Assembly: GCA_945861775.1 (NCBI GenBank)
Contig: CAMAVT010000003.1
Location: 1 to 42,159, forward strand
Source of the DNA: Bifidobacterium breve
GTDB taxonomy: Bacteria > Actinomycetota > Actinomycetes > S36-B12
Length of the DNA stretch: 42,159 bases
Direction of reading: 5' to 3'
Part shown: piece by piece, positions 15,163 through 42,159 of the stretch
How positions within the stretch are numbered: the stretch's first letter is position 1
How the letters are laid out: every line of letters starts with the position of its first letter
Translations under genes and position numbers: made by a program
The notes under the pieces: generated by a model
What the model was told of the DNA's origin: nothing
What the model saw: the letters and a program-made list of their open reading frames with translations, nothing else
Databases searched by the model: none

Positions 15163-15357
15163 ATGATTTCAATCAATATTGATATGGACTCTTGCCAGAA
15201 CTACGGGCAGTGCGTATTTGAAGCTGAGGACATTTTTCAACTCGATGACGCCGGAAACATCCAATACACCAAGGAAGTCCCCGACGACCGTCTCGAAGAC
15301 GTTGAGAGCGCCGTTGACGTTTGCCCTATGCAGGCAATCAGCTTCACGACCACTTAA
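15163..15357 (+). CDS. Small [3Fe-4S]-type ferredoxin
   Basis: C-QNY-GQC...CP motif with the second Cys replaced by Tyr; AGGAG RBS. Confidence 0.88.
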   Translation: MISINIDMDSCQNYGQCVFEAEDIFQLDDAGNIQYTKEVPDDRLEDVESAVDVCPMQAISFTTT

Positions 15358-15382
15358 GGCTCGGGGCTTCACGCACATCCAA

Positions 15383-15412
15383 CACCCTATATTTAGAGCA
15401 CCCTATATTTAG
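15383..15412. repeat. 14-bp perfect direct repeat CACCCTATATTTAG x2 (16-bp period)
   Basis: Copies at 15383-15396 and 15399-15412, in the intergenic region before the AhpD-like gene. Confidence 0.85.
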
Positions 15413-15443
15413 TGGTTGAAAGCTAATTGGTTAAGGAGAAACA

Positions 15444-16394
15444 ATGCCCGTTGATTCTCCATTACCAACGGCATTGAGGGGACTCCGGCCCGAAGCCGTT
15501 GATCTGCTCGTGCAGGCGAACAAATGTGCTCAAAGCGTCGTTGATCCCTACCTGCTGGCGCTCCTTCGGCTACGAATCGATTCGCTGATCGGCGATGGAG
15601 CTTTGACACAGGATCCATTTCCTGAAGGTGGCAGTGATCTCACTGCCAGACAGAGCGTCGCGCTTTCATTCGCCGAACAGTTCATTATTGATGTGAGTGG
15701 AATAAACGAAACCGACCGCGAATCTCTTGCCGAGTACTTTCCGGGTGAAGAAATGCGTGAGTTCATCACCGCTCTGTATATCCTCGAATGCACATATCGA
15801 TTAACACTCGTTGCGCGCGAGCTGCTCACTGATGAATCAGTGCCGGCTGACACTATTGACTTCGAAATAATGGCACCGAACTCCAATGAACAGCCGAACA
15901 TTCGCCGCTCGCTCAAGGATTACCAGGATGCCGTTGTGCGCGGGACAGATCTGGACCCGATAACCACCGAACTTGTCCGGCTCCGATGCGCGCGAACCCA
16001 CAATTGCCGGATCTGCCAAACACTCCGTCTTTCCGATGCACGCGCGGCGGGAGCAAGTGACACGATGACCGAAAAAGTGGACTTCTATGAGCTGAGCAAT
16101 CTTGATGAAAATTACAAAATTGCATTACGGATCACAGATGCCTTTATATCTCGACCTGACACTCTCTCTGCGGAAACGATAGTTGCGGCCCGCACCAACT
16201 ATTCACCCGCTCAACTCGCAGAAATGTGTCTTGACATAACTAAATGGAGCACTCAGAAGATCCACGTCGCGTTGGGAACTGACGGAGCAGACGCGGTTCC
16301 CAAAAATGAACAGGGCCTGAGCTTTTTCGGATTCGACGACCTTGGCCAAGTTACCGGTTATTCACCGACACCGACGGGGAAGGATGCACCATGA
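15444..16394 (+). CDS. Two-domain carboxymuconolactone decarboxylase/AhpD-like protein
   Basis: Two CMD-like repeats (VDP....L.RLR; LDP...ELVRLRCARTHNCRIC). CxxC is present only in the second repeat. AAGGAG RBS. Confidence 0.75.
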   Translation: MPVDSPLPTALRGLRPEAVDLLVQANKCAQSVVDPYLLALLRLRIDSLIGDGALTQDPFPEGGSDLTARQSVALSFAEQFIIDVSGINETDRESLAEYFPGEEMREFITALYILECTYRLTLVARELLTDESVPADTIDFEIMAPNSNEQPNIRRSLKDYQDAVVRGTDLDPITTELVRLRCARTHNCRICQTLRLSDARAAGASDTMTEKVDFYELSNLDENYKIALRITDAFISRPDTLSAETIVAARTNYSPAQLAEMCLDITKWSTQKIHVALGTDGADAVPKNEQGLSFFGFDDLGQVTGYSPTPTGKDAP

Positions 16395-17146
16395 CACTCC
16401 CGAACACTGCGGTTATCACCGGAGGTGGGACCGGTATCGGCGCGGCCGTTGCCCACACCCTTGCTGCGTCATGCTCCGTGATAGTTCTCGTTGGTCGCCG
16501 CCAGGATCGACTTGACGCAATGGCCAGTGAGCTCAAGGCTTCACACCCCGGTGTGACCGTCCATGGGCGAAGCGTGGATCTCACGGATATTGATTCCGTG
16601 ACCGCATTTATCGAGTGGGCGCACCAAGAATTGCCTCAGGTTAACGTCGTGGTGAATAACGCCGGTGCGGCTCAACCACAGATTGAGAAGGGGCTCACCT
16701 CCGTGGCCTCGGCCTGGGAGGCCACCTGGCGCGCCAACACATTGAGCTCGGTTCTGGTCACCGAGGGCCTGAAAGACCTTCTTGCCCGGCCCGGTGGTCG
16801 CATCATCATGATCGGGTCATTTGCGGCTGAACTCGGTACCGGCAGCCCGGCCTACGCCTCAGCCAAAGGAGCGCTTCAGGCTTATGCAATCTCATTGATG
16901 CGCGAACTTGGCTCCCAAGGCATCACCGCGAACGTAGTGGCTCCTGGGTTCACCGACGGAACCGAACTGTTGGCAGGTCGTATTTCTCCCGAACGAAGGG
17001 AGCGACTTCTTACGAGCATCTCTGCACGCCGACCAGGCACCCCCGAAGAAATTGCCAGCCTTGTTGGTTATCTGGCATCACCGCTGGCCGGATTCATCAA
17101 TGGTGAGCTCATTACGGCTAATGGCGGAACCTACCTGTCGGGTTAA
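16391..17146 (+). CDS. Classical SDR oxidoreductase
   Basis: TGGGTGIG, NNAG, YASAK, NVVAPG. Confidence 0.9.
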   Translation: MTLPNTAVITGGGTGIGAAVAHTLAASCSVIVLVGRRQDRLDAMASELKASHPGVTVHGRSVDLTDIDSVTAFIEWAHQELPQVNVVVNNAGAAQPQIEKGLTSVASAWEATWRANTLSSVLVTEGLKDLLARPGGRIIMIGSFAAELGTGSPAYASAKGALQAYAISLMRELGSQGITANVVAPGFTDGTELLAGRISPERRERLLTSISARRPGTPEEIASLVGYLASPLAGFINGELITANGGTYLSG

Positions 17147-17206: not shown

Positions 17207-17632
17207 ATGAGTGCTTTTGACGAAACAGATCTCGCTCGTATCGAAGTGGCTAAAGCCTTATTTGCAGCTTGGTCAAGTGGCGACCTCGATGCTCCACGTG
17301 CCTACCTCACCGACACTCCGGTGCTATGGGACAGCATCGGTGGACTCAAAGAAGGCTGGGACGCCATTCGCGAGTATTTCGGCCATGGTCTCAAGCGCTA
17401 CCCTGACCTGAGCCTTGTTCCAACAGGTGAGTTCTGGTCACGCCCGGACGGACTCGCAATGCAATGGACATTGAGTGCCACTGTTATCGATGAAAGCCTC
17501 GGCGCTGAACATTTCGGCAAGAAGTGGTCAGCACCTGGTTTGTCATTCCTCGTGTTCGATGGTCTCAAAGTTGCTTCCGAGTATGACTATCACGACAACG
17601 GCGCACGTCAGCGTTCACTCGAATCTAGCTGA
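17207..17632 (+). CDS. SnoaL/NTF2-like protein
   Basis: A..LFAAWSSGDLD, G.DAIREYF, G.S...F....V..E.DY.D pattern; AGGAG RBS. Confidence 0.8.
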   Translation: MSAFDETDLARIEVAKALFAAWSSGDLDAPRAYLTDTPVLWDSIGGLKEGWDAIREYFGHGLKRYPDLSLVPTGEFWSRPDGLAMQWTLSATVIDESLGAEHFGKKWSAPGLSFLVFDGLKVASEYDYHDNGARQRSLESS

Positions 17633-17637
17633 GTGCG

Positions 17638-18207
17638 TTATTGACTGGCAAGGGTCCAGCGTTCCAGCAATCGTGAGTGCAGCTCTTCGACCTGTCGAGG
17701 TGTAATGCGATTTTGTGTCACGACGCGTCGGTAGAGAAACGGTGCGACAAGGTCCTCAACACACTGCGCAATATCAAGTCGAGCATCAATTAAACCTTCC
17801 TTTTGCGCGCCACGAATGATGGAAGCAGCGCGCGAACGAGTTTGTGAAAATGCTCGGCGGTGCACTTCAGCAAAGGCGTCGTCGCGCCAAGAGCCTTCAA
17901 TTAAAGCCACCAGCATCGCGGTATAGGTCGGGTCATTAAGTCGACGCGCGTAGTCGACAAGATAGTCGTGCAATCCCGTGCTTGGGTCTGCACCAAGGTT
18001 GAGTGGTTCTTGGTGCATCAACTCATCAAATGCCTCGCAGGCTAGTGCGGCCAAATCGGGCCAGTTGCGGTAGATCGTGCTTCGAGCGATACCCGATTCG
18101 GCAGCAATCCGATCGACAGTCAAACCAACTAGTCCTTCTGAAACCAAGACCTGGCTGACAGCTTGGTACACAATTGCTCGCGTACGCTCAAATCGTGCAT
18201 CGGTCAT
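17638..18207 (-). CDS. TetR/AcrR family regulator
   Basis: HTH GLTVDRIAAESGIARSTIYRNW. Confidence 0.92.
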   Translation of the reverse strand: MTDARFERTRAIVYQAVSQVLVSEGLVGLTVDRIAAESGIARSTIYRNWPDLAALACEAFDELMHQEPLNLGADPSTGLHDYLVDYARRLNDPTYTAMLVALIEGSWRDDAFAEVHRRAFSQTRSRAASIIRGAQKEGLIDARLDIAQCVEDLVAPFLYRRVVTQNRITPRQVEELHSRLLERWTLASQ

Positions 18208-19403
18208 GCGCAGGTAATCTCCGTCAGCTGCGAAAGAAATCGCAGGTGTACAGCTACCCCAATTGATAAATGATCCGTTGATCGACGCGGTCCTTGCTCA
18301 AACACCGATCGCGCACTCAAGTTCACACATGCACCTCGATAGTGATTGAACGCCAACCACTGCTCCCACTGTTGCGCTGTGTATTCAATTCCGGCAACTT
18401 TTGCCAAGCGGGCTTTCCATGAGTCTGCATCCATGATTCGTCGCCCTCTAATGAGTGCAAGATAAGCCCAATCTTCTGCCGCATCTCCAACGTGGGCAAA
18501 CTCCCAGTCGATTGTGGTTAACCCTCGCTCAGGATCAAATAATGCATTGCCGGGACCAGCATCACCGTGCACAATTACTGAAGGACCCGTGGGTTTCAAG
18601 TGCTCATGCAGCCACTCTGCTCCATGTTCAATCAACGGGGACTCAGGGGCGTACTTGCGGTACATGGTTCGCCAGTACTCAATGTTGTCGTGGACAACGC
18701 TCTCCGCACTTCGATTCGATGCATCGAGTACGCCAACGGTGACCTGGTGTAGTTCGGCAACGGAAGCAATGATGTCGTCAAGACCTTGGTCATCAAGTCG
18801 TACAACACCAGGAACCGCCTCCATGATGAAAAACGGTTGGCCTAAAACAACTCCACTTTCTTCGACCGCAAGGACTTCAGGAACGGCATGGCCAACCGCA
18901 TGGAGAGCATGCATTGCTTTCACCTCGGTGACGGTGTCGGTGCCAAACATCCCACCTTGTTCGATTCTCACGATAACGGATTTTGGGACACCGTCGATGA
19001 TCAGATTTACCCGCCACATGTGGCGCGAGAATCCGCCACCGATCACTTCTGCGTCCACGACGCTCACTTCTGCACCCCTTTGTTGGGCAAACCATGCAGC
19101 TACCGCACCAACTTCGGCCGGTGGGACAGGTACTACCGAATGTACGATGCTGGTGTCATGGCTGGTAAATGCACCCATCAAGGGTGCCGCTTCAACAACG
19201 TCACTTGCTAGCCATTCGTTAAGTTCTGTCACCGAAACTGCTTCAGAAGCAAGCCGCAATCGTCGCGATGGCCAAGGATCCTGGCCTCGGTTATTCACGT
19301 ATTCGGCGACCGCTGCCCACTGTGCGGCGGAGCCCAATGTGGAGTCTGATTCGCCATCTGTGATTGCCTGTCGAATGAGTGCTTCGTCGATCCAGTCCTG
19401 CAT
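18204..19403 (-). CDS. APH-family phosphotransferase (ACAD10/11- or LvaA-like) with an N-terminal extension
   Basis: GGGFSR, LG.PFFIME.VPG, HGDAGPGN, IDWEFAH.GD.AED. Confidence 0.85.
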   Translation of the reverse strand: MQDWIDEALIRQAITDGESDSTLGSAAQWAAVAEYVNNRGQDPWPSRRLRLASEAVSVTELNEWLASDVVEAAPLMGAFTSHDTSIVHSVVPVPPAEVGAVAAWFAQQRGAEVSVVDAEVIGGGFSRHMWRVNLIIDGVPKSVIVRIEQGGMFGTDTVTEVKAMHALHAVGHAVPEVLAVEESGVVLGQPFFIMEAVPGVVRLDDQGLDDIIASVAELHQVTVGVLDASNRSAESVVHDNIEYWRTMYRKYAPESPLIEHGAEWLHEHLKPTGPSVIVHGDAGPGNALFDPERGLTTIDWEFAHVGDAAEDWAYLALIRGRRIMDADSWKARLAKVAGIEYTAQQWEQWLAFNHYRGACVNLSARSVFEQGPRRSTDHLSIGVAVHLRFLSQLTEITCA

Positions 19404-20404
19404 CAGCGTCCTCGCACCGCATCCGCGATCTTTGCCTCAAGTGCAAAGTCGTAGCCGGCTCCCCACACTGGATCTGAGAGTTGATCCGGTGCGTCAACTA
19501 ACGGTGTTGTGCAGAACCAGTCGTAGGTTTGCATATATCCGTCACGGAATCCGCGCTCTGTTGTGAGGCCGAGTGATGCGGATTTGGCGACCGAAAGAAT
19601 GCCATGGTGCTTCACCCCGAAAAGGTGACCGTAAATGGGTTTTTCTTGGGTGAAGTCGGTCGGGAGAACAACAATGTCGGGTTCAACACCCACGATTTGC
19701 GCGAGGGTTTCGGTGAATGCCCGAGCTGATGCACCTTCACCGGTGATGTTAATGATTTCTCCGCGCACCGCAGGGAGCTCGGCCATCTCTAGCAAATTTC
19801 GGCATAGGTCATCGACGTGACCGTAACTCGTTGTGACCAGGCCTTCATGGGGCAGGAGCACGGGGAGCCCTCGGCGTAGCCGAAGAAACATTGCAGTCTC
19901 CATGTCGTGGATGTTGTTTTCCGGTCCGTAGATCGCGGCCGGTCGCGCAATTGAGCCAGGGAATCCCGTGCTCGCAAAGCGCCCGAGAATGGAACGCTCA
20001 GCATGTGCTTTGAATCCACCGTACGTGGTGATCGGGTCACTCGTTTGCGCCTTAGTTTCGGTCCACGGCATTACGCCGGTGGGTTCGTAGGCCATAATCG
20101 ATGAAACGAAAACATATGCTCCGACACTGCCATCGAGCATGGCGAGAAGTTCCTCGAACTCGCCACCGCCTGCGGCCATAACGAACCCGGAGACATCGAT
20201 CACCGCATCCCATTGGGTGCCGTCTAGGGCTGCTCGCATGGATTCCGTGCTCGTTCGGTCACCCACCAGCCGCTCGACACCGGGAGGCAGGTCACCTGAT
20301 GTCTTTCCACGATTTAAGACCGTGGTCTGATGCCCCTCCCGAATGAGTAAATCCACCATCCGGCGCCCGACAAAGGTGCCACCGCCCAAGACAAGAATTT
20401 TCAT
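19403..20404 (-). CDS. Extended SDR / NAD-dependent epimerase-dehydratase family protein
   Basis: MKILVLGGGTFVG, NRG, YGGFK, RPAAIYGP, HVDDL. ATG 20404 has a TAAGGT -10 at 20412-20417. Confidence 0.85.
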   Translation of the reverse strand: MKILVLGGGTFVGRRMVDLLIREGHQTTVLNRGKTSGDLPPGVERLVGDRTSTESMRAALDGTQWDAVIDVSGFVMAAGGGEFEELLAMLDGSVGAYVFVSSIMAYEPTGVMPWTETKAQTSDPITTYGGFKAHAERSILGRFASTGFPGSIARPAAIYGPENNIHDMETAMFLRLRRGLPVLLPHEGLVTTSYGHVDDLCRNLLEMAELPAVRGEIINITGEGASARAFTETLAQIVGVEPDIVVLPTDFTQEKPIYGHLFGVKHHGILSVAKSASLGLTTERGFRDGYMQTYDWFCTTPLVDAPDQLSDPVWGAGYDFALEAKIADAVRGR

Positions 20405-20464
20405 GCCCCCGACCTTACAGGACATTTTGTCTCACAGTCATTCGGTGTGCGATATCATCCCGTT

Positions 20465-21592
20465 ATGACAAATTCCGGCCCACTGACGAAGATGGATGAA
20501 TACCCGCGGCATCAGATTGGTGGCACCTTTGACAGTGTTCAAAGTGACTCGGTCCATTGGAATGATGGCTTCTACTTCACTCTAGGCGACGAAGCAACCG
20601 GTACGACTCTATTCGCTGCGATCCGGCTCTATCCCAACACCGACGTGATGGATGGCTTTGCCTGCGTGACTTTTGACGGGCGCCAGCACAACATGCGTGT
20701 CTCACGCCGCCTACGTCCGCGAATCGACGACATCAGTGTTGGGCCACTATCACTGACCATTATTGAACCACTCCAAACTTTGAAGTTGGAGTGCGTGGAC
20801 AACGAATATGGAATTACATTTGACCTTCTGTGGGAGGGTCTCCACCAGCCTTACCTTGAAGATCGAATTGTTCGCTATGCCGGTGGCCGCAAAGTTTATG
20901 ATCGCACGAACTTTGATCAATGCTGCTCAGTCACAGGGACGATTTCAGTAAAGGGTCACGCTTTCAACGTTAATGCCGACACGTGGGTTGGGGTTCGCGA
21001 CCATTCGTGGGGCATGGGCCGCACCGGTGGTGCCTCATCCAGTGCAATCGCTCCCGAGCATTCGCGCGACCCTCGCCGCGGATTCGCGATGCGCCAGTGG
21101 ACCATGGTGCGAATGCCTGATCGCGTTATGTTCTGGCAGTTTCACTTGCAAGCCGATGGAAGTTTTGATCCGTTGGAGGCTGTCGTGATTCCCTTAGATC
21201 CGAGTCAACCGCAATGGTCCTATGTGGATGCTGAAGCGAGCGCGGTGCGAGTTCAGGGGTTACCGCGCGCCGAAGCAACCCACGTGAACCTAACCCGTCC
21301 CGATGGAAGGGTTGATCGGTTCGAACTCACTTCGGTGAGTTCACCCGTGTACTTGCAAGGCGGTGGTTACCATGACGGTTTCACCGACCGACTGGGCCGC
21401 GGCGTGTTCCGGGGGGAAGATGTCCACGAAGGTGAAGTCTGGGATGTAACGCACCCAATCGACGTTGGCGATCCGGGCGGCTGGTTCCGACAACGGCCCG
21501 ATGCGTGGGCTGAACAATTTGCGACCTGCGTCAACCTTGACGACCCCACCGATCGTGGATTCGGTCACCTGGAATGCGTCCTGGCGCCATGA
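20465..21592 (+). CDS. Uncharacterised beta-rich protein (AttH/tocopherol-cyclase/lipocalin-like fold inferred)
   Basis: DEYP.HQ, W.D.FYF, YPN..V.D and RDHSWG motifs. ATG 20465 has a TATCAT -10 at 20453-20458. Confidence 0.65.
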   Translation: MTNSGPLTKMDEYPRHQIGGTFDSVQSDSVHWNDGFYFTLGDEATGTTLFAAIRLYPNTDVMDGFACVTFDGRQHNMRVSRRLRPRIDDISVGPLSLTIIEPLQTLKLECVDNEYGITFDLLWEGLHQPYLEDRIVRYAGGRKVYDRTNFDQCCSVTGTISVKGHAFNVNADTWVGVRDHSWGMGRTGGASSSAIAPEHSRDPRRGFAMRQWTMVRMPDRVMFWQFHLQADGSFDPLEAVVIPLDPSQPQWSYVDAEASAVRVQGLPRAEATHVNLTRPDGRVDRFELTSVSSPVYLQGGGYHDGFTDRLGRGVFRGEDVHEGEVWDVTHPIDVGDPGGWFRQRPDAWAEQFATCVNLDDPTDRGFGHLECVLAP

Positions 21593-32253: not shown

Positions 32254-32356
32254 CTGCGTGAGCGTACTGCAGGCAACTTGCAGGAATTAATGGCCGCCAT
32301 TGACCCGAAGTGTCCCTGCGCACCCACTGCGCTATTCGCCCCGATAGCGTCTCGCC

Positions 32357-34525: not shown

Positions 34526-34557
34526 GGCTGATGGACTCCTTGTTTACGGGTATCAGA

Positions 34558-34586
34558 ATTATGTCCCCGATGTTATAGGACGTCAA
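34558..34586 (-). promoter_or_regulatory. Sigma70-type promoter of Rieske gene 3
   Basis: TTGACG (34581-34586) - 17 nt - CATAAT (34558-34563), overlapped by the imperfect inverted repeat ATGTCC-N11-GGACGT. Confidence 0.7.
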
Positions 34587-34605
34587 ATAAAGATGCTTAC
34601 CCAAC

Positions 34606-34644
34606 AAGGAAAGGGCCCGACCAAATTGGCCGGACCCTTTCCTT
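34606..34644 (-). terminator. Intrinsic terminator after the solute-binding protein gene
   Basis: Minus strand AAGGAAAGGGTCCGGCCA...TGGTCGGGCCCTTTCCTT; the two G.U pairs form only on the minus strand. Confidence 0.8.
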
Positions 34645-34663
34645 TACAGCGAGTGCTTGAGAC

Positions 34664-35767
34664 TTACTTTACGCCCCAAATCTTCTTGAACTGATTTACA
34701 TAGTCCTTGACGCCCAAGTAGTCACCCTCTGGAGTGAGGACCAACGACTTAGCATTTTGCTTGGTCAGGATCTGTGTTGGCAATTCGTTTGTGACGTATG
34801 GCATACCGATCGAGTTACGGGCCATGCTGTCCACGACACTCCAACCAACGATGGGGAGTGAGTAGCCGGTCCATGCTGATTCGGTGCCGTCCTTGAGTCC
34901 CTGGATATTTGCCTTACCAGCGGTCAAGCCACCGATTGCGATTGCAGGGTTGTTCAGAGCAGCAGAGACACCGGTGACCCAGCCACCGAGGTCGGAGACG
35001 AGCCAGTTGGTACCTGGGTTTGATGCAACAATGTTGACGGCTGCTTGGGGAACCTTACCCGCGAAGATGTCGGTCAACTGCTGATCATTTTCTTCGTATG
35101 TGCACTTGGTTGGGCACAGCTTCTTCAGGTTCTTAGCGTAAGAAACGTCGAAGCGACGAAGGATTGGGTACAAAGGAACCGTGATTCCCTGAGCCTTCAC
35201 GTTGCCCTTTGTTGCTGCAACGGAGTAGGCAGCGATCATCTGGCCCCAAAGGTCAATTGTCTTTGGACCGGCAATGTGGGTGTCCTCCAGTGCTGATGTT
35301 GGCTTGCTCATGCATGCAGAGCAGATAACGACAACACCCTGCTTCTCAGCCTTGGTCAGAAGATCTGACAAAGTTGATGGCTCAATACCGGAGATGTGGA
35401 TGTAGTTCGGGTTGAGTGACAGCGCCTGGCTGAAAAGTGAACGCTGGGTTTCAGGGCTGACTGCGCCAACGAGTTCTTTGTACTTCCAGCCGAGTGTCTT
35501 GGCAGCTGCACCAATGGCTTCATCGAGCACCTTGTTTTCATCGCCACCGTTTGAGAGGGCTACGACAAACTGACCCTTTGGTGGAACAGACTTCAAAGGT
35601 GTGGTGATCCCAATGCTTGTTGGGGTCTTGTTGTACTTAGCTACAATCGCGGCGGAAAGGGTGACACCCTTGTCCTGTGGATTTGCAGCAAAGGCTGCGG
35701 GTGCAATACCCGAAACCAAGAGGGCAGCGGATCCTATAAAAGCAACCGCTGTGGTTAGCTTGCGCAT
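34664..35767 (-). CDS. Sugar-type (PBP type 1) solute-binding protein, Lys-rich, with a signal peptide
   Basis: Signal peptide ...APAAFA; AA..LGW, CPTKC, GW...D..AR, LPTQ, C-terminal F..IWGVK. Confidence 0.72.
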   Translation of the reverse strand: MRKLTTAVAFIGSAALLVSGIAPAAFAANPQDKGVTLSAAIVAKYNKTPTSIGITTPLKSVPPKGQFVVALSNGGDENKVLDEAIGAAAKTLGWKYKELVGAVSPETQRSLFSQALSLNPNYIHISGIEPSTLSDLLTKAEKQGVVVICSACMSKPTSALEDTHIAGPKTIDLWGQMIAAYSVAATKGNVKAQGITVPLYPILRRFDVSYAKNLKKLCPTKCTYEENDQQLTDIFAGKVPQAAVNIVASNPGTNWLVSDLGGWVTGVSAALNNPAIAIGGLTAGKANIQGLKDGTESAWTGYSLPIVGWSVVDSMARNSIGMPYVTNELPTQILTKQNAKSLVLTPEGDYLGVKDYVNQFKKIWGVK

Positions 35768-35959: not shown

Positions 35960-37159
35960 TTACTTGACACCCCATAACGCGGTGAACAGTTCGCGGTAGT
36001 TGGCAATTCCCAGGTAATTGCCGTTCTCGTCGAGTACTGCATCAGCAATATTGGTGACATTAAGGAGTTGACTCGGCAGGAGTCCATCAGCTGGTGCATC
36101 ACCCGCGAGCACCCGCGCGAACTGGTCAATAACCCGCCACGCCATCACTGGTACGGGCAGAGCCGTCCACGCCTGCAAGGCAGCAGCCGCTTCTGGGGTT
36201 GCATCCGTTGATCCACTTGCCGGTGGGACCGCACCCGATGCAGCGAGGTCGACCAAGGATGTGATGTCTCGAGCATTGGCACCACGGCCGATGAGAACCG
36301 TTGGTTCCAACACGAGTGCATCGGCCAAAGCCGCGGGGACATCGGCGGAAAGCTCCCCTGAGTCAAGGAGTGCCCAACGGCCCAGGCTCGTGCTCATGGT
36401 GTCCGCGATAAACGTGGGCACCATGCTCAGATCGGTCGTATCAACCTCAGATTCAATCGCGGAACAATCTCGACACAGGCCAGCCAGAGTGTTAACGAAT
36501 TCGGCATTGAAAGTGACCAGTGCTGGCACGGGAAGTGTGAAAACCTCTATGCCGGCAACTTCTTCTGCCGCCTGATTGGCGACCACGTAACTCGCAAGTA
36601 TTTGACCCCACAGGACATTTTGTGCGTCGCCATCAATGCTTGTGTTTTTGATGGCACCCGTTGGCTCGCCCGAGCATCCGGTACAAATCACGGCCACTCC
36701 TGCGGCCTCAGCGGCAGCGAGTTGGGTGGCTAAAACGTCAACGTATCTACCCGAGATCCGAATGCCCGCCGGATTGAGAGCCAGGGCTTCGTCGAATGCT
36801 GCCGGCGCCGATTCCACAGTTTCTGCTCCGAGAACCTCGGCGAATTCCCAGCCGATTGCCGCGGCAGCCTCGGCCATCGAGGTGTTCAGCAAGGTATCAA
36901 ATTCGGAGCCGTCGGAGAGGCTGACAATGAGTGAACCAGCAGCCGGTGGGGCCGTCAGTGGGACATCCACGCCAATGGAGGTCGGTGCAAGAAATGCCGA
37001 AGCGAGGAGTTCGGGATCAACCGCGGGATCCGCAGCGGTTTCCTCACCGACCACCGCTTCACCCTCAACGAAGTTGGGGTCATCAGCTGGCATGGCGCAG
37101 GAAGCTAGAACCAAAGTGGCGGATAAGGCAACGACAACCGAAAGCATTGACCGACGCAT
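35960..37159 (-). CDS. Sugar-type (PBP type 1) solute-binding lipoprotein, acidic paralog
   Basis: Lipobox LASC after ATG 37159. Shares PTSIG...PL...P..G, VIC..C, WGQ..A.Y, C..C, AWT, LP.Q and YLG...Y...F...WGVK with the neighbouring gene. Confidence 0.72.
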   Translation of the reverse strand: MRRSMLSVVVALSATLVLASCAMPADDPNFVEGEAVVGEETAADPAVDPELLASAFLAPTSIGVDVPLTAPPAAGSLIVSLSDGSEFDTLLNTSMAEAAAAIGWEFAEVLGAETVESAPAAFDEALALNPAGIRISGRYVDVLATQLAAAEAAGVAVICTGCSGEPTGAIKNTSIDGDAQNVLWGQILASYVVANQAAEEVAGIEVFTLPVPALVTFNAEFVNTLAGLCRDCSAIESEVDTTDLSMVPTFIADTMSTSLGRWALLDSGELSADVPAALADALVLEPTVLIGRGANARDITSLVDLAASGAVPPASGSTDATPEAAAALQAWTALPVPVMAWRVIDQFARVLAGDAPADGLLPSQLLNVTNIADAVLDENGNYLGIANYRELFTALWGVK

Positions 37160-37328
37160 GTGACTCTCTTTCAAAGATATAAACGACTGAAAGCCCAAAA
37201 CTACATGCACGTCCAATAATCTGTCTCAGCGACTCGGTTTCAACTTGATCACATTGAGCACGACAGGCGGTCCCTTCATCACTTGCTATTGTTGTGGCTC
37301 ATCCATCTACATCCCGGCCCACCTCTGG

Positions 37329-37364
37329 AGTGCAATGTCCTTCGAAAGTGCAATGTCCTTCGAA
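37329..37364 (+). repeat. Perfect 18-bp tandem duplication AGTGCAATGTCCTTCGAA spanning the start codon
   Basis: Units at 37329-37346 and 37347-37364; the translated result is MSFESAMSFE. Confidence 0.9.
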
Positions 37365-38447
37365 CTACCCCTGGCAGCTCTTGACCCGGAAGAGATTGTC
37401 GATTTGCGCACCACCGTGCGCTCGGCTGCAACGGAGTCGGGGTATCCAACCGCGGTGCTTGAACTCGAAAAATCAGAGACTGGTCTAGACCTTGCGTTGT
37501 GGTCACTGCTCGCGCAGGACATCGGGCTCTCTGCGGTCGGGCTACCTGAGTCTGCCGGCGGCTTGGGCGGCCTTGCCGAAATTCTTGCGGTGGCAGAAGA
37601 ACTAGGTGCCACGTTGGCGCCCGTTCCCTTTATTACCAGCACTGTTCTGTGCGGCCAAGTCTTGGCTGCAAGTGATGAAAGTTCAACTCCATATCTTGAG
37701 CGAATTGCGGCAGGTGAGATTGCGGCTCCCGCCTTTACCAATGCGCGCGGCCAATGGTCTGCGGGTGACATTTCATGTACGAGTGATGGTGAAAAAGTTT
37801 CGGGAACGGTCCGATTCGCGCCATTTGGTGCCAGTGCAACATTCTTTGTGGTTGCAGCCCGCACAGATTCAGGCATTGATGTATTTGTTGTTGAGGCTTC
37901 CGATGCGAACGTCAGCGCGTTGCCATCACTAGATTTCTCGCGGCCATCGGCAACCGTCACTTTCGATAGTTCCCCAGCAGTGCGACTGACGACCGGTGGA
38001 AATGGCGAGAGTGTAATCTCACACGCCGTTGACATAACACTGATGGCTGTTGCCGCTGATCAACTTGGCGGATCGCAGGCCTGTTTTGATATGACACTTG
38101 ACTATATAAAGGTGCGCCGCCAATTTAATCGGGAGATCGGTAGCTTCCAAGCCATCAAACACCGGATGACCGATGCCCTGATGCTCGTTGAAATGCTGCG
38201 ATCTGGGCTGGAAAAGGTGACATCGGGTGGCACGCAGGATCTTGCCGCGGATGCAGCGATGAATAAGTCCTGGGGGTCTGATTCTTACATTGCGATGACC
38301 GCCGAAGCAATTCAATTGCACGGTGGTATCGGTTTCACGTGGGAACACACCACGCACCTGTATTTCAGAAGGGCGCGCTACGACGCTGCGTTTCTCGGCG
38401 ATGGTTCATTTCAGCGCGAGCGCCTCGCCAAAGTGCTGAACTGGTAA
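37335..38447 (+). CDS. Acyl-CoA dehydrogenase-like subunit (non-catalytic FadE27/28-type)
   Basis: R.QF.R.IGSFQAIKH, IQLHGGIGFTWEH..HLYFRRA. ATG 37335 follows GGAG. Confidence 0.85.
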   Translation: MSFESAMSFELPLAALDPEEIVDLRTTVRSAATESGYPTAVLELEKSETGLDLALWSLLAQDIGLSAVGLPESAGGLGGLAEILAVAEELGATLAPVPFITSTVLCGQVLAASDESSTPYLERIAAGEIAAPAFTNARGQWSAGDISCTSDGEKVSGTVRFAPFGASATFFVVAARTDSGIDVFVVEASDANVSALPSLDFSRPSATVTFDSSPAVRLTTGGNGESVISHAVDITLMAVAADQLGGSQACFDMTLDYIKVRRQFNREIGSFQAIKHRMTDALMLVEMLRSGLEKVTSGGTQDLAADAAMNKSWGSDSYIAMTAEAIQLHGGIGFTWEHTTHLYFRRARYDAAFLGDGSFQRERLAKVLNW

Positions 38448-38455: not shown

Positions 38456-39709
38456 TCAGGATTTTGCAAGTTGCGAAAACGGTGCCTTGTCGGTTCGGTG
38501 CTCAGCAGGGAGCCCGAGCACTCTTTCGGCGACAATATTGCGTTGCACCTCGTCGGTGCCACCTGCCAGTCGGTAACCAGGAGCACCAAGAACATGCTCA
38601 CCCCAGGCAAACTCCCCCCACTCTCCAGTGTCCGCGACCAACGCGGATCCGAGCATGTTCGCAGCCGTGTTACCGATGCGCACGAGATTGTCCGATGCCA
38701 GAAGTTTTCCTAGAGATCCAGCTGGACCGGGATCCCCACCGGTTGCAGTAGCTCGAGCAACTTTGGTCACCATCGCTGCATGTAACCGGGTTCGGATCGT
38801 GATGTCGGCCAGTTCCTGACGAGTCACCGGGTCCGAACTCAACCCCAAATGCTGGGCGAGTGCAACAAGATCGGATGCGGTACCGCCTTTTCGTCGATGC
38901 CCCGATCCCGATGATGTCCGTTCAAAGCCAAGGGTGGTCTGCGCGACCTTCCAGCCCGCATCGACATCACCGATACGCATAGAGTCTGGGATCCGGGTTG
39001 CGTCAAACCACACTTCGTTGAAAGAAGCCGGGCCACTCATTTGACGAATGGGTCGAATCTCAACGCCCGGGGCATTCATGGGCACTAAAAATGCGGTGAT
39101 GCCACCCTGTTTCACCGCATCAGGATTGGTGCGGGCCAGAATGAAACCGTACTCGGAAAATTGTGCGTTAGAACTCCAAATCTTTTGACCGGTGATCAAC
39201 CAGTCATCCCCGTCACGAACCGCTTTGGTTGACAGGCCCGCAAGATCGGATCCCGCACCGGGCTCGCTGAACAGTTGGCAGCACAGCAATTCAGTGCTCA
39301 GGAATGCTTTTGCGAATTGCTCGCGTTGTTCGGGTGTACCGAAGATGCTAACGGCCGATCCGACAAGACCCGTGGTCACCGAGATGATTTCCGAGGAGGG
39401 GGGAACGGCAAATTTGCGTTCTTCTTGGGCAAAGGCAACGGAGTACACACTGGGCAGACCCGCGCCACCGAACTCAGCGGGGAGTGAAATGGCTCCGTAT
39501 CCCGCTTCGAATCGTTGGCGTCGGTATTCCCTTACTCGCGTAAGGAATGCGACTTCTTCGTCGTGGCTCAATGCTAAGAAAATTTGCAGGCGTGGGTCAC
39601 CTTCACCCCACACAAAAACTTCTTCTTGCGCCGGTTCAGCAATGGATGCAAGCCATGTGCGCACTTCGCTGCGCCAGGCGTCTAAATGTTGTTGGTCTAT
39701 TTCGCTCAC
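38456..39709 (-). CDS. Acyl-CoA dehydrogenase (catalytic FadE26/29-type subunit)
   Basis: CQLFSEPGAGSDLA, GQKIWSS, FNEVWFD, TTLGFER, AGGTDEVQRN..AERVLGLP. Confidence 0.9.
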   Translation of the reverse strand: MSEIDQQHLDAWRSEVRTWLASIAEPAQEEVFVWGEGDPRLQIFLALSHDEEVAFLTRVREYRRQRFEAGYGAISLPAEFGGAGLPSVYSVAFAQEERKFAVPPSSEIISVTTGLVGSAVSIFGTPEQREQFAKAFLSTELLCCQLFSEPGAGSDLAGLSTKAVRDGDDWLITGQKIWSSNAQFSEYGFILARTNPDAVKQGGITAFLVPMNAPGVEIRPIRQMSGPASFNEVWFDATRIPDSMRIGDVDAGWKVAQTTLGFERTSSGSGHRRKGGTASDLVALAQHLGLSSDPVTRQELADITIRTRLHAAMVTKVARATATGGDPGPAGSLGKLLASDNLVRIGNTAANMLGSALVADTGEWGEFAWGEHVLGAPGYRLAGGTDEVQRNIVAERVLGLPAEHRTDKAPFSQLAKS

Positions 39710-40875
39710 GGTCGTGCTCCTTCGTTGATCAGGACCGTACAGGCACTAATGCCCGGCGCTCCATAGACGTGGGTGAAACCAATACGCGGGGCTCCCGGAA
39801 CTTGTTTACCGTCAGCGCGACCCTGCAACTGTCTCACGATCTCGTGTACTTGTCGCAAGCCAGAAGCGCCCACCGGCTCTCCGTTGGCGAGTAATCCACC
39901 GTCGGTGTTGAGAGGCAGCCGACCATCAATTTCGAATTCACCGTTGCGGTAAGCGGCTTCCTGCTCTCCATGGGCAACGAGTCCGGTCTCACCTAAGTGA
40001 ATAACTTCGGCTCCGCTGTCAGTGTCTTGGAGCTGGGCTACCTGCACATCCGCGGGCGTAATGCCAGCAAGGTCAAATGCTGCTTTCGCCGCGTCAATTG
40101 AAGGACTCGTACGGTCACCGGGTGAGAGCCAGGGTGAGAAAACTTCGAACGATCCTGGTCGACGACCACGAAGCGCCACCGATGCCAGTCGAATCGGAGT
40201 TTCGCACAAGTCATAGGCCTTCGAGCCGCGAGCTAGAACAAGGGAAACCGCGCCAGCATCAGGTGCACAAAACATGAAACGCGTGAGGGGGTCATTGATC
40301 ATGTCGGCATCCATCGCTTCATCAACGGAAACCGGCTTACGCCGCCACGCATACGGGTGTTCTTGCGCGTAATCAAATGCTTTTGCCGAGGCATAACCGA
40401 GGGTGCGCTGGCTTATTCCGTGTTCATGAAGGTAGCGCGCAATTTTCAGTGCAAAATATGAAGTAGTAACCATCATGCCTGTGGCTCCGTACCAATCACC
40501 CAGTCCATAGCGTGCGGGTGAAACATTGAAAGCGCCCCGAGCGTGATTGTCATAGCCGACAACGCAAGCAACATCGAGATCTTCAGCGATTAACCCGTTA
40601 CGTGCTGTCATTAAAGCCACAGCACCTGTCGCGCATCCGTTCTTCACCGTCACGAACGGAAGTCCGGTGAGTCCCAATCGTGAGACTAGGTTGTCCGGCT
40701 TTGTCTCACCATTAGTGCCACCCACCGCGAACTCGATGTCGGACCAGGCAAGACCACAGTCGGCAAGCGCACCGCGCACTGCCGTCTCTGCAAGCTCGTT
40801 ATCTTCGCCGTCAAATCTGCCGAACTCCGTCCGTGCTGCGCCGACAATAAAAATGTCATTCGTATTCACGCTCAC
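39706..40875 (-). CDS. SCP2/Ltp-type thiolase-family protein
   Basis: NGCATG, PLT..M.C.P..GA, AQLQDTDSG.E, NTDGGL.ANGEPVGASG, HVYGAPG. Confidence 0.87.
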   Translation of the reverse strand: MSVNTNDIFIVGAARTEFGRFDGEDNELAETAVRGALADCGLAWSDIEFAVGGTNGETKPDNLVSRLGLTGLPFVTVKNGCATGAVALMTARNGLIAEDLDVACVVGYDNHARGAFNVSPARYGLGDWYGATGMMVTTSYFALKIARYLHEHGISQRTLGYASAKAFDYAQEHPYAWRRKPVSVDEAMDADMINDPLTRFMFCAPDAGAVSLVLARGSKAYDLCETPIRLASVALRGRRPGSFEVFSPWLSPGDRTSPSIDAAKAAFDLAGITPADVQVAQLQDTDSGAEVIHLGETGLVAHGEQEAAYRNGEFEIDGRLPLNTDGGLLANGEPVGASGLRQVHEIVRQLQGRADGKQVPGAPRIGFTHVYGAPGISACTVLINEGARP

Positions 40876-41279
40876 GTCACAGCCTCGAAACCAAATGTGA
40901 AGACAGGTGCACCTTCATGCGTCCAGGCTTTAGCGAGCACCAAATTAACCTGCTCCCCAATCGTCCATTGGGTTTTTCCCACCAGCCAACCTTCGACAAT
41001 CACGGGGCCAAGGTCTACATAGCCAATGGAAAAAGGTGCGAATTCATCGGTCCGAAATGGTGGCTTCGGTGCGAAGTGTTGGGTTGTCCAGGACCAGAGG
41101 GTTCCTTCGGTGGGCAAGCCCACTCTCGTGACGTCAAGGCTCGAACAGGTTGGGCAGGAATCCATGGCTGGGAAAACGTGTGCACCACATGCACCACACA
41201 TGGATCCCGCTAAAACAACCGGATCCACGGATGTAAACAACGTCGAGTCAACAACTGCGATGCCCACAGGAATGCTCAT
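40872..41279 (-). CDS. DUF35 Zn-ribbon/OB-fold protein
   Basis: CGACG..VFP....CPTC, GTLWSWT, PF.IGYVDL. Start set at ATG 41279. Confidence 0.87.
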   Translation of the reverse strand: MSIPVGIAVVDSTLFTSVDPVVLAGSMCGACGAHVFPAMDSCPTCSSLDVTRVGLPTEGTLWSWTTQHFAPKPPFRTDEFAPFSIGYVDLGPVIVEGWLVGKTQWTIGEQVNLVLAKAWTHEGAPVFTFGFEAVT

Positions 41280-41295
41280 GTATTCGCTTTCGGGA

Positions 41296-42159
41296 TTAGG
41301 CCGAAAGGCGCACGAGCGCCTTGCCAAAGTTCGCCCCGGACAGTAAACCTTCAAGGCCCGCACCTGCGGCGCCAATACCTTCAACAATCGTCGCACGGTC
41401 GACCAACTGACCGCTTGCCAACCATCCACTGACTTTCGCTTCAAACTCCGGACGCAGATCCTCATAGTCGCGGACAATAAATCCCGTGATGGTAAGCCGT
41501 CGGAGTACTGCTTCAATGAGAACCGCGATGGATGGCTGCTCCTGAGTTCCAAAATTGGAAACTGCACCACACATGCTGATGCGCCCGCGAATCTTCATGT
41601 TATGCAGGGCCGATGCGAGTTGCTCGCCGCCCACATTGTCAAAAAACAAATCAATTCCTTCGGGTGCAAACTTGGATAACTCCGCCGCGAAATCCTCATC
41701 GCGATAATTGATTACCTCGTCGAAGCCGCACTCGGTTGTAAGCCACGTGCATTTATCTGCACCACCGGCGCTACCGATAACCCGTCCTGCGCCAAGCAAC
41801 CTCGCGAACTGTCCAACCATGCTGCCCACGGCTCCACCGGCGCCGGTCACGAGAACCGTCTCACCCGCCGCCAGATGACCCACGGGAAGAAGTCCTGCGT
41901 AGGCGGTGAATCCGGTCTGGCCCATTGAACTCAACCAAGAGATCGTTGGCGCCAGTGAAAGGTCGCAAATTGTTGCTGTCGCGTCGTCAACGACCGCGTA
42001 CTCGCGCCAGCCGAGGCGGTGACGAACAGTGGATCCGACGGGGAGAAGTTCTGAAGCGGACTCCTCCACTATTCCGATAGCAGAGCCATCAAGTGGGCCG
42101 CCGATCTCAAAATTGGTGGTGTACTGCTTCTCGCCCGGGTCCATGCGGCCACGGGTTGA
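41296..42159 (-). CDS. NADP-dependent enoyl/alkenal reductase (PTGR/CurA-like MDR), 5'-truncated by the window
   Basis: RGRM, GWREYA, G.TG.TAY.GL, GAGGAVGS.VGQ.A, FDNVGG, GAN.GKA. The frame is open to the window end. Confidence 0.88.
   Translation of the reverse strand, partial: STRGRMDPGEKQYTTNFEIGGPLDGSAIGIVEESASELLPVGSTVRHRLGWREYAVVDDATATICDLSLAPTISWLSSMGQTGFTAYAGLLPVGHLAAGETVLVTGAGGAVGSMVGQFARLLGAGRVIGSAGGADKCTWLTTECGFDEVINYRDEDFAAELSKFAPEGIDLFFDNVGGEQLASALHNMKIRGRISMCGAVSNFGTQEQPSIAVLIEAVLRRLTITGFIVRDYEDLRPEFEAKVSGWLASGQLVDRATIVEGIGAAGAGLEGLLSGANFGKALVRLSA

Follow-up and report, generated by a model that had tools for sequence, protein, structure and literature searches.

Introduction

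In the Cre and Hpe pathways, as far as the published excerpts used here describe them, a compound is phosphorylated, transformed and then dephosphorylated (PMC12167813, PMC9618137; cre genes, PMC7764795), and the characterised two-component kinases of this type, HpeHI, CreHI and PpsAB, all phosphorylate phenols (PMC12167813). A different kinase module is found in Mycobacterium tuberculosis, where the TetR regulator Rv3167c represses Rv3168, which encodes an APH-family kinase, and Rv3169 (PMC5340868, in excerpt). The literature searched (subscription journals largely outside, supplements outside) holds regulation data and no function for the Rv3168-Rv3169 pair. Here we analyse contig CAMAVT010000003.1 of assembly GCA_945861775.1, a stretch of 42,159 bp that we call the window. 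It is the entire contig C3 of a 2.26-Mb metagenome-assembled genome (MAG; 200 contigs, 85% complete) and carries, from about position 15163 to its end, a gene cluster built around three Rieske oxygenases.

Some families of this cluster are familiar from steroid metabolism. In the bai operon of bile-acid 7α-dehydroxylation, BaiA is a short-chain dehydrogenase/reductase (SDR), BaiB a ligase and BaiE an NTF2 dehydratase, while BaiCD and BaiH are of the old yellow enzyme (OYE) type. The Ltp2-type steroid aldolase has a thiolase fold without the nucleophilic cysteine and is bound to the DUF35 domain of ChsH2. A preliminary description of the window had proposed a catabolic cluster of at least 27 kb for a non-benzenoid polycyclic, terpenoid/steroid-like or N-alkyl substrate. 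We find that the cluster is part of an accessory island in this freshwater actinobacterial genus, and that the island is conserved in other Actinomycetota. Our favoured reading, to which we give about even chances, is that the 27 kb are one arm, the left, of a single catabolic supercluster that spans about 60 kb with some 59 genes and would act as one system on a small polar hydroxylated compound by way of phosphorylated intermediates.

Results

A conserved accessory island of about 60.7 kb

Contigs were scanned with an alignment of the second Rieske oxygenase of the window (Rieske2), and all island proteins were compared by tblastn. The 70 loci found, some of them near-identical at 96-98% protein identity, were classed by identity to Rieske2 as A (at least 90%), B (60-90%) or C (below 60%). 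Co-occurrence was counted at loci with full 10-kb flanks (10 in class B, 23 in class C).

The left boundary of the island falls in the intergenic stretch 15137-15443, which is preceded by an ABC-2 permease gene (14291-15136, plus strand). In G007, a genome of the same genus, this gene is directly followed by the acyl-CoA dehydrogenase (ACAD) gene that in the relative G016 borders the island at its far end, just beyond a CoA ligase gene. Because the two flank genes adjoin in G007, we regard the block of about 60.7 kb and some 59 genes between them as an accessory island, which is present or absent as a whole at this one site. The empty site also confirms the start near 15163 given in the preliminary description as the true left edge. 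In two further genomes, G019 and G020, the 20 kb around the ABC-2 gene are free of island genes. In G016, the whole window is collinear with a 120-kb contig (C5 of that genome), on which the island continues past the window end. The genome of the window itself carries the remaining part on contigs C173, C26 and C65, and there too the island ends at the flank gene seen in G016. The earlier extent of at least 27 kb thus describes the window, which holds the left 27 kb, and falls short of the full island. Of 22 genomes of the genus, seven have a Rieske2 ortholog, each at least 92% identical. Signs of a mobile element were not detected: the window has no tRNA, no Rfam match at gathering score and no GC shift, and no integrase or transposase is present among the open reading frames (ORFs) scanned.

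Gene order is kept well beyond the genus. Five genomes of other genera with class-B loci were searched (G041 to G045). In three of these (G041, G042 and G043), the APH kinase, Rieske2, the thiolase, the PPDK-like protein and the CoA ligase follow each other in the same order over 60-65 kb, at 61-84% protein identity across genera, and G045 has the same order minus the APH gene. In G044, the APH and thiolase genes flank Rieske2 on one contig and the remainder is found on others, so that four of the five preserve the APH-to-thiolase order on a single contig. Loss of synteny among relatives, named beforehand as the observation that would speak against one conserved catabolic cluster, was therefore not what we found, and the gene grouping is not due to chance. 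In an even sample of the class, a Rieske2 ortholog (E<=1e-100) was present in 7 of 401 genomes and 4 of 174 genera. The system is thus rare and patchy, yet it stays together where it is present.

At all ten full-flank class-B loci, Rieske2 is accompanied by the histidine phosphatase (HisPhos), the aldehyde dehydrogenase (ALDH), Y_phosphatase3, SnoaL_4 protein c, the GntR regulator, the solute-binding protein SBP1, SDR3, Rieske1 and the TIM barrel. Rieske3, the reductase, SnoaL_4 protein b and SDR2 are found at nine of the ten. The 23 class-C loci retain SDR3 (19 loci), a swivel-His phosphotransferase (17; PEPmob family), the HisPhos family (16), a SnoaL_4 protein (15), Rieske1 (14) and the reductase (12). 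Class C includes cultured Actinomadura, Frankia, Goekera deserti and Trujillonella humicola as well as a Blastococcus MAG. These loci are compact and re-ordered, with genes of both arms mixed within 20 kb.

The right arm, as seen in G016, opens with a small glyoxalase-fold protein, which lies beyond the contig end and was not listed previously, a second His_Phos_1 protein and the E2, E1β and E1α components of a 2-oxoacid dehydrogenase. Next come a ThuA protein, a sugar-type ABC permease, a double-cassette ATPase, an 867-aa PPDK-like protein and a 204-aa protein. The arm also encodes a BaiCD/FadH-like OYE flavoenzyme, and two swivel-His proteins of about 580 aa that flank a fourth Rieske oxygenase (Rieske4, 44% identical to Rieske2) and a third His_Phos_1 protein. 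SnoaL_4, PNPOx-like and SDR genes, a second Y_phosphatase3 and a second TIM barrel are present as well, as are two F420-type luciferase-like monooxygenases, more SDRs, a second ThuA, a stand-alone Fer2 ferredoxin, a double SnoaL_4 protein and a HAD phosphatase. The arm ends with an AMP-forming CoA ligase. The preliminary description had noted that no CoA ligase was in view; this holds for the window, and the ligase lies beyond the contig end.

A core of kinase, phosphatase and oxygenase genes

The most conserved part of the locus is the succession HisPhos, Rieske, SDR, swivel-His, reductase, Rieske. The kinase and phosphatase genes of the window, whose motifs are intact, belong to this conserved core of swivel-His kinase, Rieske oxygenase and phosphatase, a point absent from the preliminary description. 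The APH-family kinase (18204-19403, minus strand; Pfam APH, E 5e-24) has its HGDxxxxN motif at residue 279. Its relatives in the PDB, both remote, are Rv3168 (3ats) and the kinase domain of ACAD11 (E 1e-9 to 1e-5). The branch-1 histidine phosphatase (28851-29456, minus strand; His_Phos_1, E 1e-30) carries RHA in place of RHG, and the Y_phosphatase3 protein (30980-31720, minus strand; E 4e-50) has its CX5R loop at residue 140.

Between the SDR3 and reductase genes, a gene of 1.75-1.9 kb for a swivel-His phosphotransferase is present at 20 of 26 class-B loci and at none of the five class-A loci. The gene has been lost in the genus of the window (class A). In the window, the 100-bp gap at this position holds a terminator-like hairpin with a perfect 18-bp stem and ten G-C pairs (26522-26563, minus strand), which may be a deletion scar or an internal terminator dividing the 11-gene minus-strand run.

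The swivel-His proteins of the right arm (581 and 583 aa) resemble rifampin phosphotransferase, PigC and RedH in their substrate-binding and swivel parts and retain the catalytic histidine. No PPDK_N/ATP-grasp partner is detectable by Pfam in the island. By Pfam, the PPDK-like protein shows the mobile and PEP-binding domains alone, although the PPDK model aligns from residue 161. Elsewhere in the genome of the window, contig C5 encodes a PPDK_N ATP-grasp protein that is full-length and stands alone (361-aa frame, 374 bits; 25020-25967), 8 kb from a swivel-His paralog (33863-35569) that is 47% identical to the island protein. A Rieske-domain hit lies on the same contig (16340-16525). This set may represent a complete two-component dikinase cluster.

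Three Rieske oxygenases and one reductase

The three Rieske α subunits of the window (Rieske1, 24237-25391; Rieske2, 27493-28797; Rieske3, 33101-34525; all on the minus strand) each consist of a Rieske and a Ring_hydroxyl_A domain by Pfam, with intact CxH...CxxH and ExxHxxxxH motifs. For Rieske2, 702 homologs were found, and the motif residues are invariant across 16 of them. The proteins are equally remote (E 1e-22 to 1e-30, mostly over the N-terminal half) from phthalate, naphthalene and biphenyl dioxygenases, CntA and Stc2; the last two match the window proteins at E 1e-13 to 1e-24. In the PDB search, the only full-length alignment of Rieske2 was to CntA (E 5e-24). The best match of Rieske3, the α subunit of phthalate 3,4-dioxygenase (E 2.5e-30), spans the N-terminal half only. 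KshA structures match neither Rieske1 nor Rieske2 at E<=1e-5; they match Rieske3 alone, at E 7e-7 to 3e-6, over the Rieske domain. An AlphaFold2 model of Rieske2, built from a 16-sequence alignment, was poor, with a mean pLDDT of 54.5.

The FNR-type reductase (25487-26473, minus strand; Pfam NAD_binding_1) has a C-terminal 2Fe-2S domain (Fer2, residues 247-319) and thus the PDR/VanB layout. This is the sole Fer2 domain in the window. The separate ferredoxin gene reported for the window therefore does not exist; the stand-alone Fer2 gene sits in the right arm, as seen in a relative.

Several observations on individual loci are worth recording. In cultured Goekera, Trujillonella and Actinomadura, a small ABM monooxygenase gene lies directly 5' of the Rieske2-type gene (L075, 9606-9962; L085, 9583-9936; L062, 9615-9998), and in the first two of these genera it stands between two adjacent Rieske genes; the window has no ABM gene. 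Rieske2 orthologs of two genomes of the window's genus contain a single in-frame stop (G018, C133:7658-8950; G021, C10:13805-15094). In G045, the thiolase and CoA ligase are each split into two matches (C2:37051-38207 and 72476-73892), with an in-frame stop in one thiolase piece. These copies may reflect assembly errors, start-site effects or decaying genes.

A sugar-type importer and two regulators

SBP1 (34664-35767, minus strand) is a predicted secreted solute-binding protein, whose N-terminus resembles a signal peptide. SBP2 (35960-37216, minus strand; probable start near 37150), its paralog with 32% identity (E 1e-46), has a lipoprotein-like N-terminus. A sequence search of solved structures returned no match for SBP1. 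Its AlphaFold2 model, built from a 122-sequence alignment, has a pLDDT of 94.1; among the Foldseek PDB matches listed, almost all are monosaccharide binders, the best being arabinose-, ribose-, glucose/galactose-, xylose-, galactofuranose- and methylthioribose-binding proteins (target-normalised TM-score about 0.7-0.84, identity 11-18%). In the right arm, the permease resembles AraH/RbsC/AlsC-type models and the 513-aa ATPase YtfR/AraG/XylG-type models. A class I sugar-binding fold, a BPD_transp_2 permease and a double-cassette ATPase together make up a CUT2 importer. Residues C218 and C222 of SBP1 form a near-invariant pair, conserved in at least 90% of 122 diverse homologs.

The GntR/UTRA regulator (32357-33085, plus strand; Pfam GntR and UTRA) is divergent from the long minus-strand run across a 103-bp gap. 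Its best NCBIfam model is PhnF, at 117.7 bits against a cut-off of 156.8. Effectors of the UTRA-type GntR subfamily are often phosphorylated sugars. Within the gap (32254-32356), we noticed by eye an imperfect 7-3-7 inverted repeat near 32270-32287, a candidate operator. A sigma-70 promoter scan gave no support for promoters (6 sites, against a shuffle mean of 8.9). The TetR regulator (17638-18207, minus strand; TetR_N and TetR_C_11) is encoded by the last gene of the epimerase-APH-TetR unit and overlaps the APH gene by four bases.

Dehydratase-like NTF2 proteins and a TIM barrel

Four NTF2-fold proteins are encoded in the window: a SnoaL_2 protein (17207-17632, plus strand; E 1e-10), with a 58% identical ortholog beside a TetR gene in the Trujillonella locus L085, and the SnoaL_4 proteins a (21574-22092, plus strand; E 1e-24), b (22910-23386, minus strand) and c (31717-32253, minus strand), the last being the first gene of the long minus-strand run. 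The ortholog profile of SnoaL_4 b finds 3ef8, a putative scytalone dehydratase, as its best PDB match (E 2e-24), against E 0.008-0.1 for β subunits of ring-hydroxylating oxygenases. That of SnoaL_4 c matches 3b8l, BaiE (4l8o, E 2e-9) and LinA. Overall, dehydratase-type matches lie at E 2e-24 to 2e-9, versus E 0.007-0.1 for oxygenase β subunits, and no NTF2 gene abuts a Rieske α gene in the window. On these scores and the lack of adjacency, we rejected a role as β subunits of an α3β3 dioxygenase as unlikely. The NTF2 proteins, judged by their profiles, are likely to be dehydratases or isomerases of hydroxylated rings. The xylose-isomerase-like TIM barrel (23417-24262, minus strand; Pfam AP_endonuc_2, E 1e-15) has two weak PDB relatives, Lmo2234 and AsbF.

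A CoA-ester module

ACADa (37245-38447, plus strand) is a candidate small or β-type subunit, with Pfam Acyl-CoA_dh_1 and _N but no middle-domain match; its best NCBIfam models are IpdE2 (162 bits) and PimD (97 bits), both below cut-off. ACADb (38456-39709, minus strand), a candidate large or α-type subunit, has PimC as best NCBIfam model (159 bits), and its best solved relatives are α2β2 steroid ACADs, namely Tcur3483 (E 1e-38) and ChsE4-ChsE5 (E 1.5e-36). These relatives lend support to the previously proposed FadE heteropair, and ACADa and ACADb also co-occur at loci L060 and L066. Both genes of the pair are indeed present, though they are convergent, not co-operonic, and their products share no BLASTP similarity.

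The SCP2-type thiolase (39706-40875, minus strand) is closest in the PDB to BbsB (7pxp, E 4.5e-37) and matches Ltp2 (6ok1) more weakly, at E 5e-21. It retains Cys81 in a thiolase-like motif at the usual position of the nucleophile. We rejected an Ltp2-type aldolase on the grounds of this cysteine and of the closer match to BbsB. The putative thiolase partner, a DUF35 protein with a zinc ribbon and an OB fold (40872-41279, minus strand; Pfam OB_ChsH2_C and zf-ChsH2), is present as had been described; it is 135 aa long by comparison with the G016 ortholog, and not the 232-aa ORF listed. Next to it, an alkenal/enone double-bond reductase (41296-42159, minus strand; ADH_N_2 and ADH_zinc_N) is cut by the contig edge. 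It scores 244 bits with the CurA model (cut-off 440), and the full 335-aa form is present in G016.

Other genes of the window

Pfam was run on the 30 ORFs between 15444 and 42159, and for 28 of them it recovers families on the earlier gene list, which is upheld apart from the corrections given here: three Rieske α subunits, a PDR-type reductase, four NTF2 proteins, four SDRs, an ALDH, an APH kinase, two phosphatases, a TIM barrel, two SBPs, two ACADs, a thiolase with DUF35, an alkenal reductase, TetR and GntR. The other two ORFs (32332-32658 and 32659-33045) have no Pfam match, and both are antisense to the GntR gene. Co-directional runs are densely packed, with overlaps of 1-26 bases or gaps below 140 bases. 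None of 28 window proteins reaches an NCBIfam equivalog cut-off; the two models that pass are at subfamily level, one a generic glucose-1-dehydrogenase-type SDR, the other the Rv3169 family (NF053593; 239.7 bits, cut-off 150). The latter identifies a DUF7065 gene (20447-21592, plus strand) that was missing from the earlier list.

The island starts with a CMD/AhpD-like protein (15444-16394, plus strand; Pfam CMD, E 1e-5; 79% identical ortholog in G016). The four SDR genes comprise three classical ones, SDR1 (16391-17146, plus strand; adh_short, E 9e-39), SDR2 (22113-22913, minus strand; adh_short_C2, E 2e-57) and SDR3 (26574-27359, minus strand; adh_short, E 2e-47), and one extended NAD epimerase/dehydratase of 3β-HSD-like type (19403-20425, minus strand; Epimerase, E 4e-19; 3Beta_HSD, E 4.5e-6). 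The ALDH (29460-30965, minus strand) matches Aldedh at E 3e-154.

Outside the island, the left flank encodes an 841-aa fusion of an S15/α-β-hydrolase peptidase domain and an ABC ATPase (11769-14294, plus strand). The fusion, which is translationally coupled to the ABC-2 permease, is conserved in all five genomes of the genus tested, at 66-91% identity. A 505-aa ORF without a Pfam family (5027-6544, plus strand) lies directly 3' of a ferredoxin-reductase-like gene (3836-5023; Pyr_redox_2 and Reductase_C), and at 8736-9596 (minus strand) a GmrSD_C endonuclease domain is joined with an Excalibur calcium-binding domain in one protein.

Discussion

A proposed pathway

We read the island as a single system because the window is collinear with G016, the common flanks are adjacent in G007 and the order is kept across genera. 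In the pathway we propose, a CUT2-type ABC importer, with its SBPs encoded in the window and its permease and ATPase in the right arm, would take up a small polar compound that bears hydroxyl groups, may be methylated and is most likely alicyclic or sugar-like. These hydroxyls would then be phosphorylated by the APH kinase and by the swivel-His and PPDK-like proteins of the right arm, and in most relatives additionally by the swivel-His protein encoded between SDR3 and the reductase. The three α-only Rieske monooxygenases (four island-wide), with the FNR-Fer2 reductase as their one source of electrons, could hydroxylate or demethylate the tagged intermediates at C-H or O-methyl positions. SDRs and the ALDH would convert alcohols to ketones and acids, while the dehydratase-like NTF2 proteins and the TIM barrel may eliminate or shift ring hydroxyls and ene-reductases saturate the enones. 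After removal of the phosphate by His_Phos_1 and Y_phosphatase3, the acid could be turned into a CoA ester by the right-arm ligase and shortened by the putative two-subunit ACAD and the BbsAB-like thiolase/DUF35 pair. GntR/UTRA and TetR would regulate the units.

Several lines of evidence point to this scheme. A polar substrate is suggested because SBP1 folds like sugar binders and the permease and ATPase match monosaccharide models. Phosphate tagging is suggested by the linkage of swivel-His (20/26 class-B loci; PEPmob, 17/23 class-C loci) and HisPhos genes (16/23), by the intact motifs and by the parallel of the gene layout with the cre genes (PMC7764795) and the Hpe pathway (PMC9618137, PMC12167813), as far as the excerpts go. 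Ring chemistry is suggested because the NTF2 profiles match scytalone dehydratase, BaiE and LinA and the right arm has a BaiCD-like OYE. The same NTF2 likeness would favour an alicyclic ring and agrees with the non-benzenoid ring of the preliminary description.

The substrate class is the weakest part of our reading: it is deduced, like the phosphate tagging and the order of the steps, from gene families and their linkage. A number of points weigh against the scheme. With the swivel-His gene absent from the window, as from all five class-A loci, the phosphate donor would have to be the APH kinase and right-arm proteins. The phosphatases could be regulatory or mutases, considering that HisPhos has RHA rather than RHG. 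The characterised swivel-His two-component kinases act on phenols (PMC12167813, in excerpt), which favours an aromatic compound, and a LigB-type dioxygenase, present on other contigs in two of five carrier genomes, could provide for ring cleavage of aromatics elsewhere. The α2β2-like ACAD and the BbsB-like thiolase are of kinds known from bulky steroid or aryl substrates, and the identity of SBP1 to solved binders is too low to define a ligand. In addition, no hydratase or hydroxyacyl-CoA dehydrogenase was recognised as such.

A bolder variant, which we put forward tentatively and think less probable, takes the missing ATP-grasp domain at face value; the supercluster would then encode a catabolic strategy that has no description so far. 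Here, the PPDK-like protein, which keeps the PEP-binding barrel and the swivel histidine and has no detectable ATP-grasp domain, would be charged by PEP and pass the phosphate to the ATP-grasp-less swivel-His phosphotransferases. This would amount to a cytoplasmic phosphorelay to a small molecule, similar to that of the phosphotransferase system. The Rieske enzymes would act on a phosphate-tagged polar alicyclic, for example a methylated cyclitol or a hydroxylated cyclohexanecarboxylate from plant or algal dissolved organic matter, and ring opening, to a CoA ester, would fall not to a dioxygenase but to an acetoin-dehydrogenase-like E1/E2 complex.

Alternative explanations

The strongest rival, although we consider it unlikely, is a Cre/Hpe-like pathway for a phenolic benzenoid derived from lignin or humic matter. 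In this scenario, the phenol hydroxyl is phosphorylated as a protecting handle, a Rieske oxygenase (in place of the P450 CreJ) oxidises an alkyl or methoxy group, SDR and ALDH produce the acid, phosphatases deprotect it, the side chain is shortened as a CoA ester and the ring is cleaved elsewhere. The kinship of the right-arm swivel-His proteins, with their catalytic histidine, to phosphotransferases agrees with this, and so does the fact that all characterised two-component relatives phosphorylate phenols (PMC12167813, in excerpt). The cre set of kinase, oxygenase, alcohol dehydrogenase, ALDH and phosphohydrolase mirrors the core (PMC7764795, in excerpt), the alkenal reductase is CurA-like and the thiolase BbsB-like, and an ATP-grasp protein with a swivel-His paralog is available on C5. 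Ring cleavage is where this explanation meets difficulties. Marker tests on five island-bearing genomes (85-99% complete) found an intradiol dioxygenase in none and the LigB-type enzyme in only two, and the three compact clusters of cultured strains contain no recognisable ring-cleavage dioxygenase. Moreover, the importer is of monosaccharide type, the dehydratase-like NTF2 proteins, TIM barrels and ThuA better suit non-aromatic rings, and the island lacks an ATP-grasp partner.

We find it improbable that the island is a mosaic of independent oxygenase, CoA, transport and kinase operons without a common substrate. Its genes do form several transcription units on both strands with two regulators, a strong hairpin divides the long minus-strand run, paralogs recur (four Rieske, three HisPhos, two Y_phosphatase3, two TIM barrels and two ThuA) and gene content varies among class-C loci. 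However, other genera share the whole order over 60-65 kb at 61-84% protein identity, genomes of the genus carry the block, at its one site, either entire or not at all, and in other families the genes of both arms re-assort and yet remain within 20 kb of each other.

Catabolism of a steroid, a bile-acid-like compound or a terpenoid polycycle, as favoured in the preliminary description, now seems similarly hard to uphold. The case for it lies in ACADb, with Tcur3483 and ChsE4-ChsE5 as its nearest solved relatives, in the IpdE2 match of ACADa, in the thiolase with DUF35, the 3β-HSD-like extended SDR, the BaiE-like NTF2 proteins and the BaiCD-like OYE. Against this, the KshA_C domain and the Mce/MlaD domain are both absent from all five carrier genomes. 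No Rieske protein is KshA-like, Rieske3 alone matching at about 1e-6 over the Rieske domain, and all ACAD and thiolase scores stay far below equivalog cut-offs, with the thiolase nearer to BbsB than to Ltp2 and its cysteine kept. The importer is of sugar type, and the genomes measure about 2 Mb. Taken with the dioxygenase results above, steroid catabolism and classical aromatic mineralisation are both poorly supported.

It is very improbable that the Rieske enzymes are N-demethylases or C-N-cleaving enzymes of the GbcA, CntA or Stc2 kind and that the cluster degrades betaine, a carnitine-like compound or an N-alkyl osmolyte, which was the other substrate type suggested earlier. While Rieske1, Rieske2 and Rieske4 all find GbcA as their top NCBIfam model, the domains of the reductase are ordered as in GbcB/CntB, Rieske2 aligns to CntA over its full length and the best model for the ALDH is betaine-aldehyde dehydrogenase (438 bits, cut-off 669), the GbcA scores (Rieske1 93.6, Rieske2 128.9 and Rieske3 95.7 bits, against an equivalog cut-off of 670) indicate kinship at superfamily level only, a betaine-type transporter is absent, the SBP being of sugar type, and most of the roughly 59 genes would have no role in such short pathways. 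Finally, a biosynthetic or tailoring cluster for a modified cyclitol or polyketide-like metabolite is highly unlikely, since SnoaL, ABM (between Rieske genes in cultured strains), SDR, Rieske and TetR are indeed common tailoring families, but the island yielded no polyketide synthase, non-ribosomal peptide synthetase, terpene synthase, cyclase or glycosyltransferase and codes instead for an SBP-dependent importer, an ALDH, a CoA ligase, ACADs, a thiolase and a 2-oxoacid dehydrogenase complex.

Significance

Nanopelagicales-type actinobacteria are among the most abundant freshwater bacteria, and to our knowledge the dissolved organic compounds they consume are largely unknown. About 3% of this genome of about 2.2 Mb is one strain-variable island, whose order is kept across genera and which is echoed in culturable soil genera. 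Identification of its substrate would supply a concrete link to the carbon cycle. In addition, four orphan Rieske families, the partner-less swivel-His phosphotransferases and the Rv3168/Rv3169-type module that M. tuberculosis carries too would receive a function, and the result would test whether transient phosphorylation in aerobic catabolism reaches beyond the few known phenol pathways. Cultured carriers (Goekera deserti CPCC 205119, locus L075; Trujillonella humicola SYSU BS000539, loci L079 and L085; Actinomadura rudentiformis HMC1, locus L063; and Frankia) make the system directly testable.

Comparison with known systems

An oxygenase-rich catabolic cluster is a known kind of system. What is new is the combination of orphan Rieske families, partner-less swivel-His proteins and two phosphatase families with a sugar-type importer in a conserved order of 60 kb. 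Neither the literature searched nor NCBIfam or the PDB yielded this gene combination or a characterised member, in keeping with the earlier view that no described pathway matches gene for gene.

Among the steroid CoA modules (ChsE4-ChsE5, Tcur3481/3483, IpdE1-E2, Ltp2-ChsH2), we also see two ACAD genes of great divergence that are conserved together, and DUF35 as the partner of a thiolase-fold protein. In the window, by contrast, the ACAD genes are convergent and the thiolase keeps its cysteine, scores are far below the equivalog cut-offs and the carriers are without KshA_C and Mce. The bai operon employs the same families for the removal of ring hydroxyls by oxidation, dehydration and ene-reduction of a CoA ester, and BaiE and BaiCD are among our matches. 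All of these are weak (BaiCD at 245 bits, cut-off 825), and the island is aerobic and actinobacterial, with many additional oxygenases, kinases and phosphatases. BbsAB, the benzoylsuccinyl-CoA thiolase of anaerobic toluene degradation, shares the build of a thiolase and a zinc-ribbon/OB subunit; 7pxp is the best solved relative of the thiolase and BbsA the best NCBIfam model for the DUF35 protein. Here, the scores differ widely from the cut-offs (BbsB, 140 against 750 bits; BbsA, 33.5 against 250), other bbs genes are absent, and the setting is an aerobic one with many oxygenases.

With GbcA, CntA and Stc2, the window shares α-only Rieske proteins, a PDR-type (FNR-Fer2) reductase partner and the metal motifs, at the distance of a superfamily (94-129 bits against 670; PDB E 1e-22 to 1e-25). 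The triad of a TetR regulator, an APH-family kinase and an Rv3169-family protein recalls Rv3167c and Rv3168-Rv3169 (PMC5340868, in excerpt). The likeness to Rv3168 is remote (E 2e-9 over about 110 residues), and in the window an extended SDR gene sits between those of the kinase and the Rv3169-family protein.

The Cre pathway (Corynebacterium glutamicum creCDEFGHIJ) and the Hpe/Acv pathways likewise combine a small-molecule kinase, an oxygenase, an alcohol dehydrogenase, an ALDH and a phosphohydrolase in one cluster, and the substrate-binding and swivel-His build of HpeH and CreH recurs in the 581- and 583-aa proteins of the island (PMC7764795, PMC9618137, PMC12167813; all in excerpt). The named components for comparison are HpeHI, HpeCBA and HpeD. 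In contrast to Cre, the island uses Rieske oxygenases where Cre has the P450 system CreJEF, and it has no biotin carboxylase. Its phosphatases are His_Phos_1 and Y_phosphatase3, whereas HpeD is a NagD-like HAD protein. In place of the ATP-grasp (I) component of both pathways there is a PPDK-like protein with a PEP-binding domain. The loss of the swivel-His gene from the window, the sugar-type importer and the many additional modules further set the island apart from Cre and Hpe.

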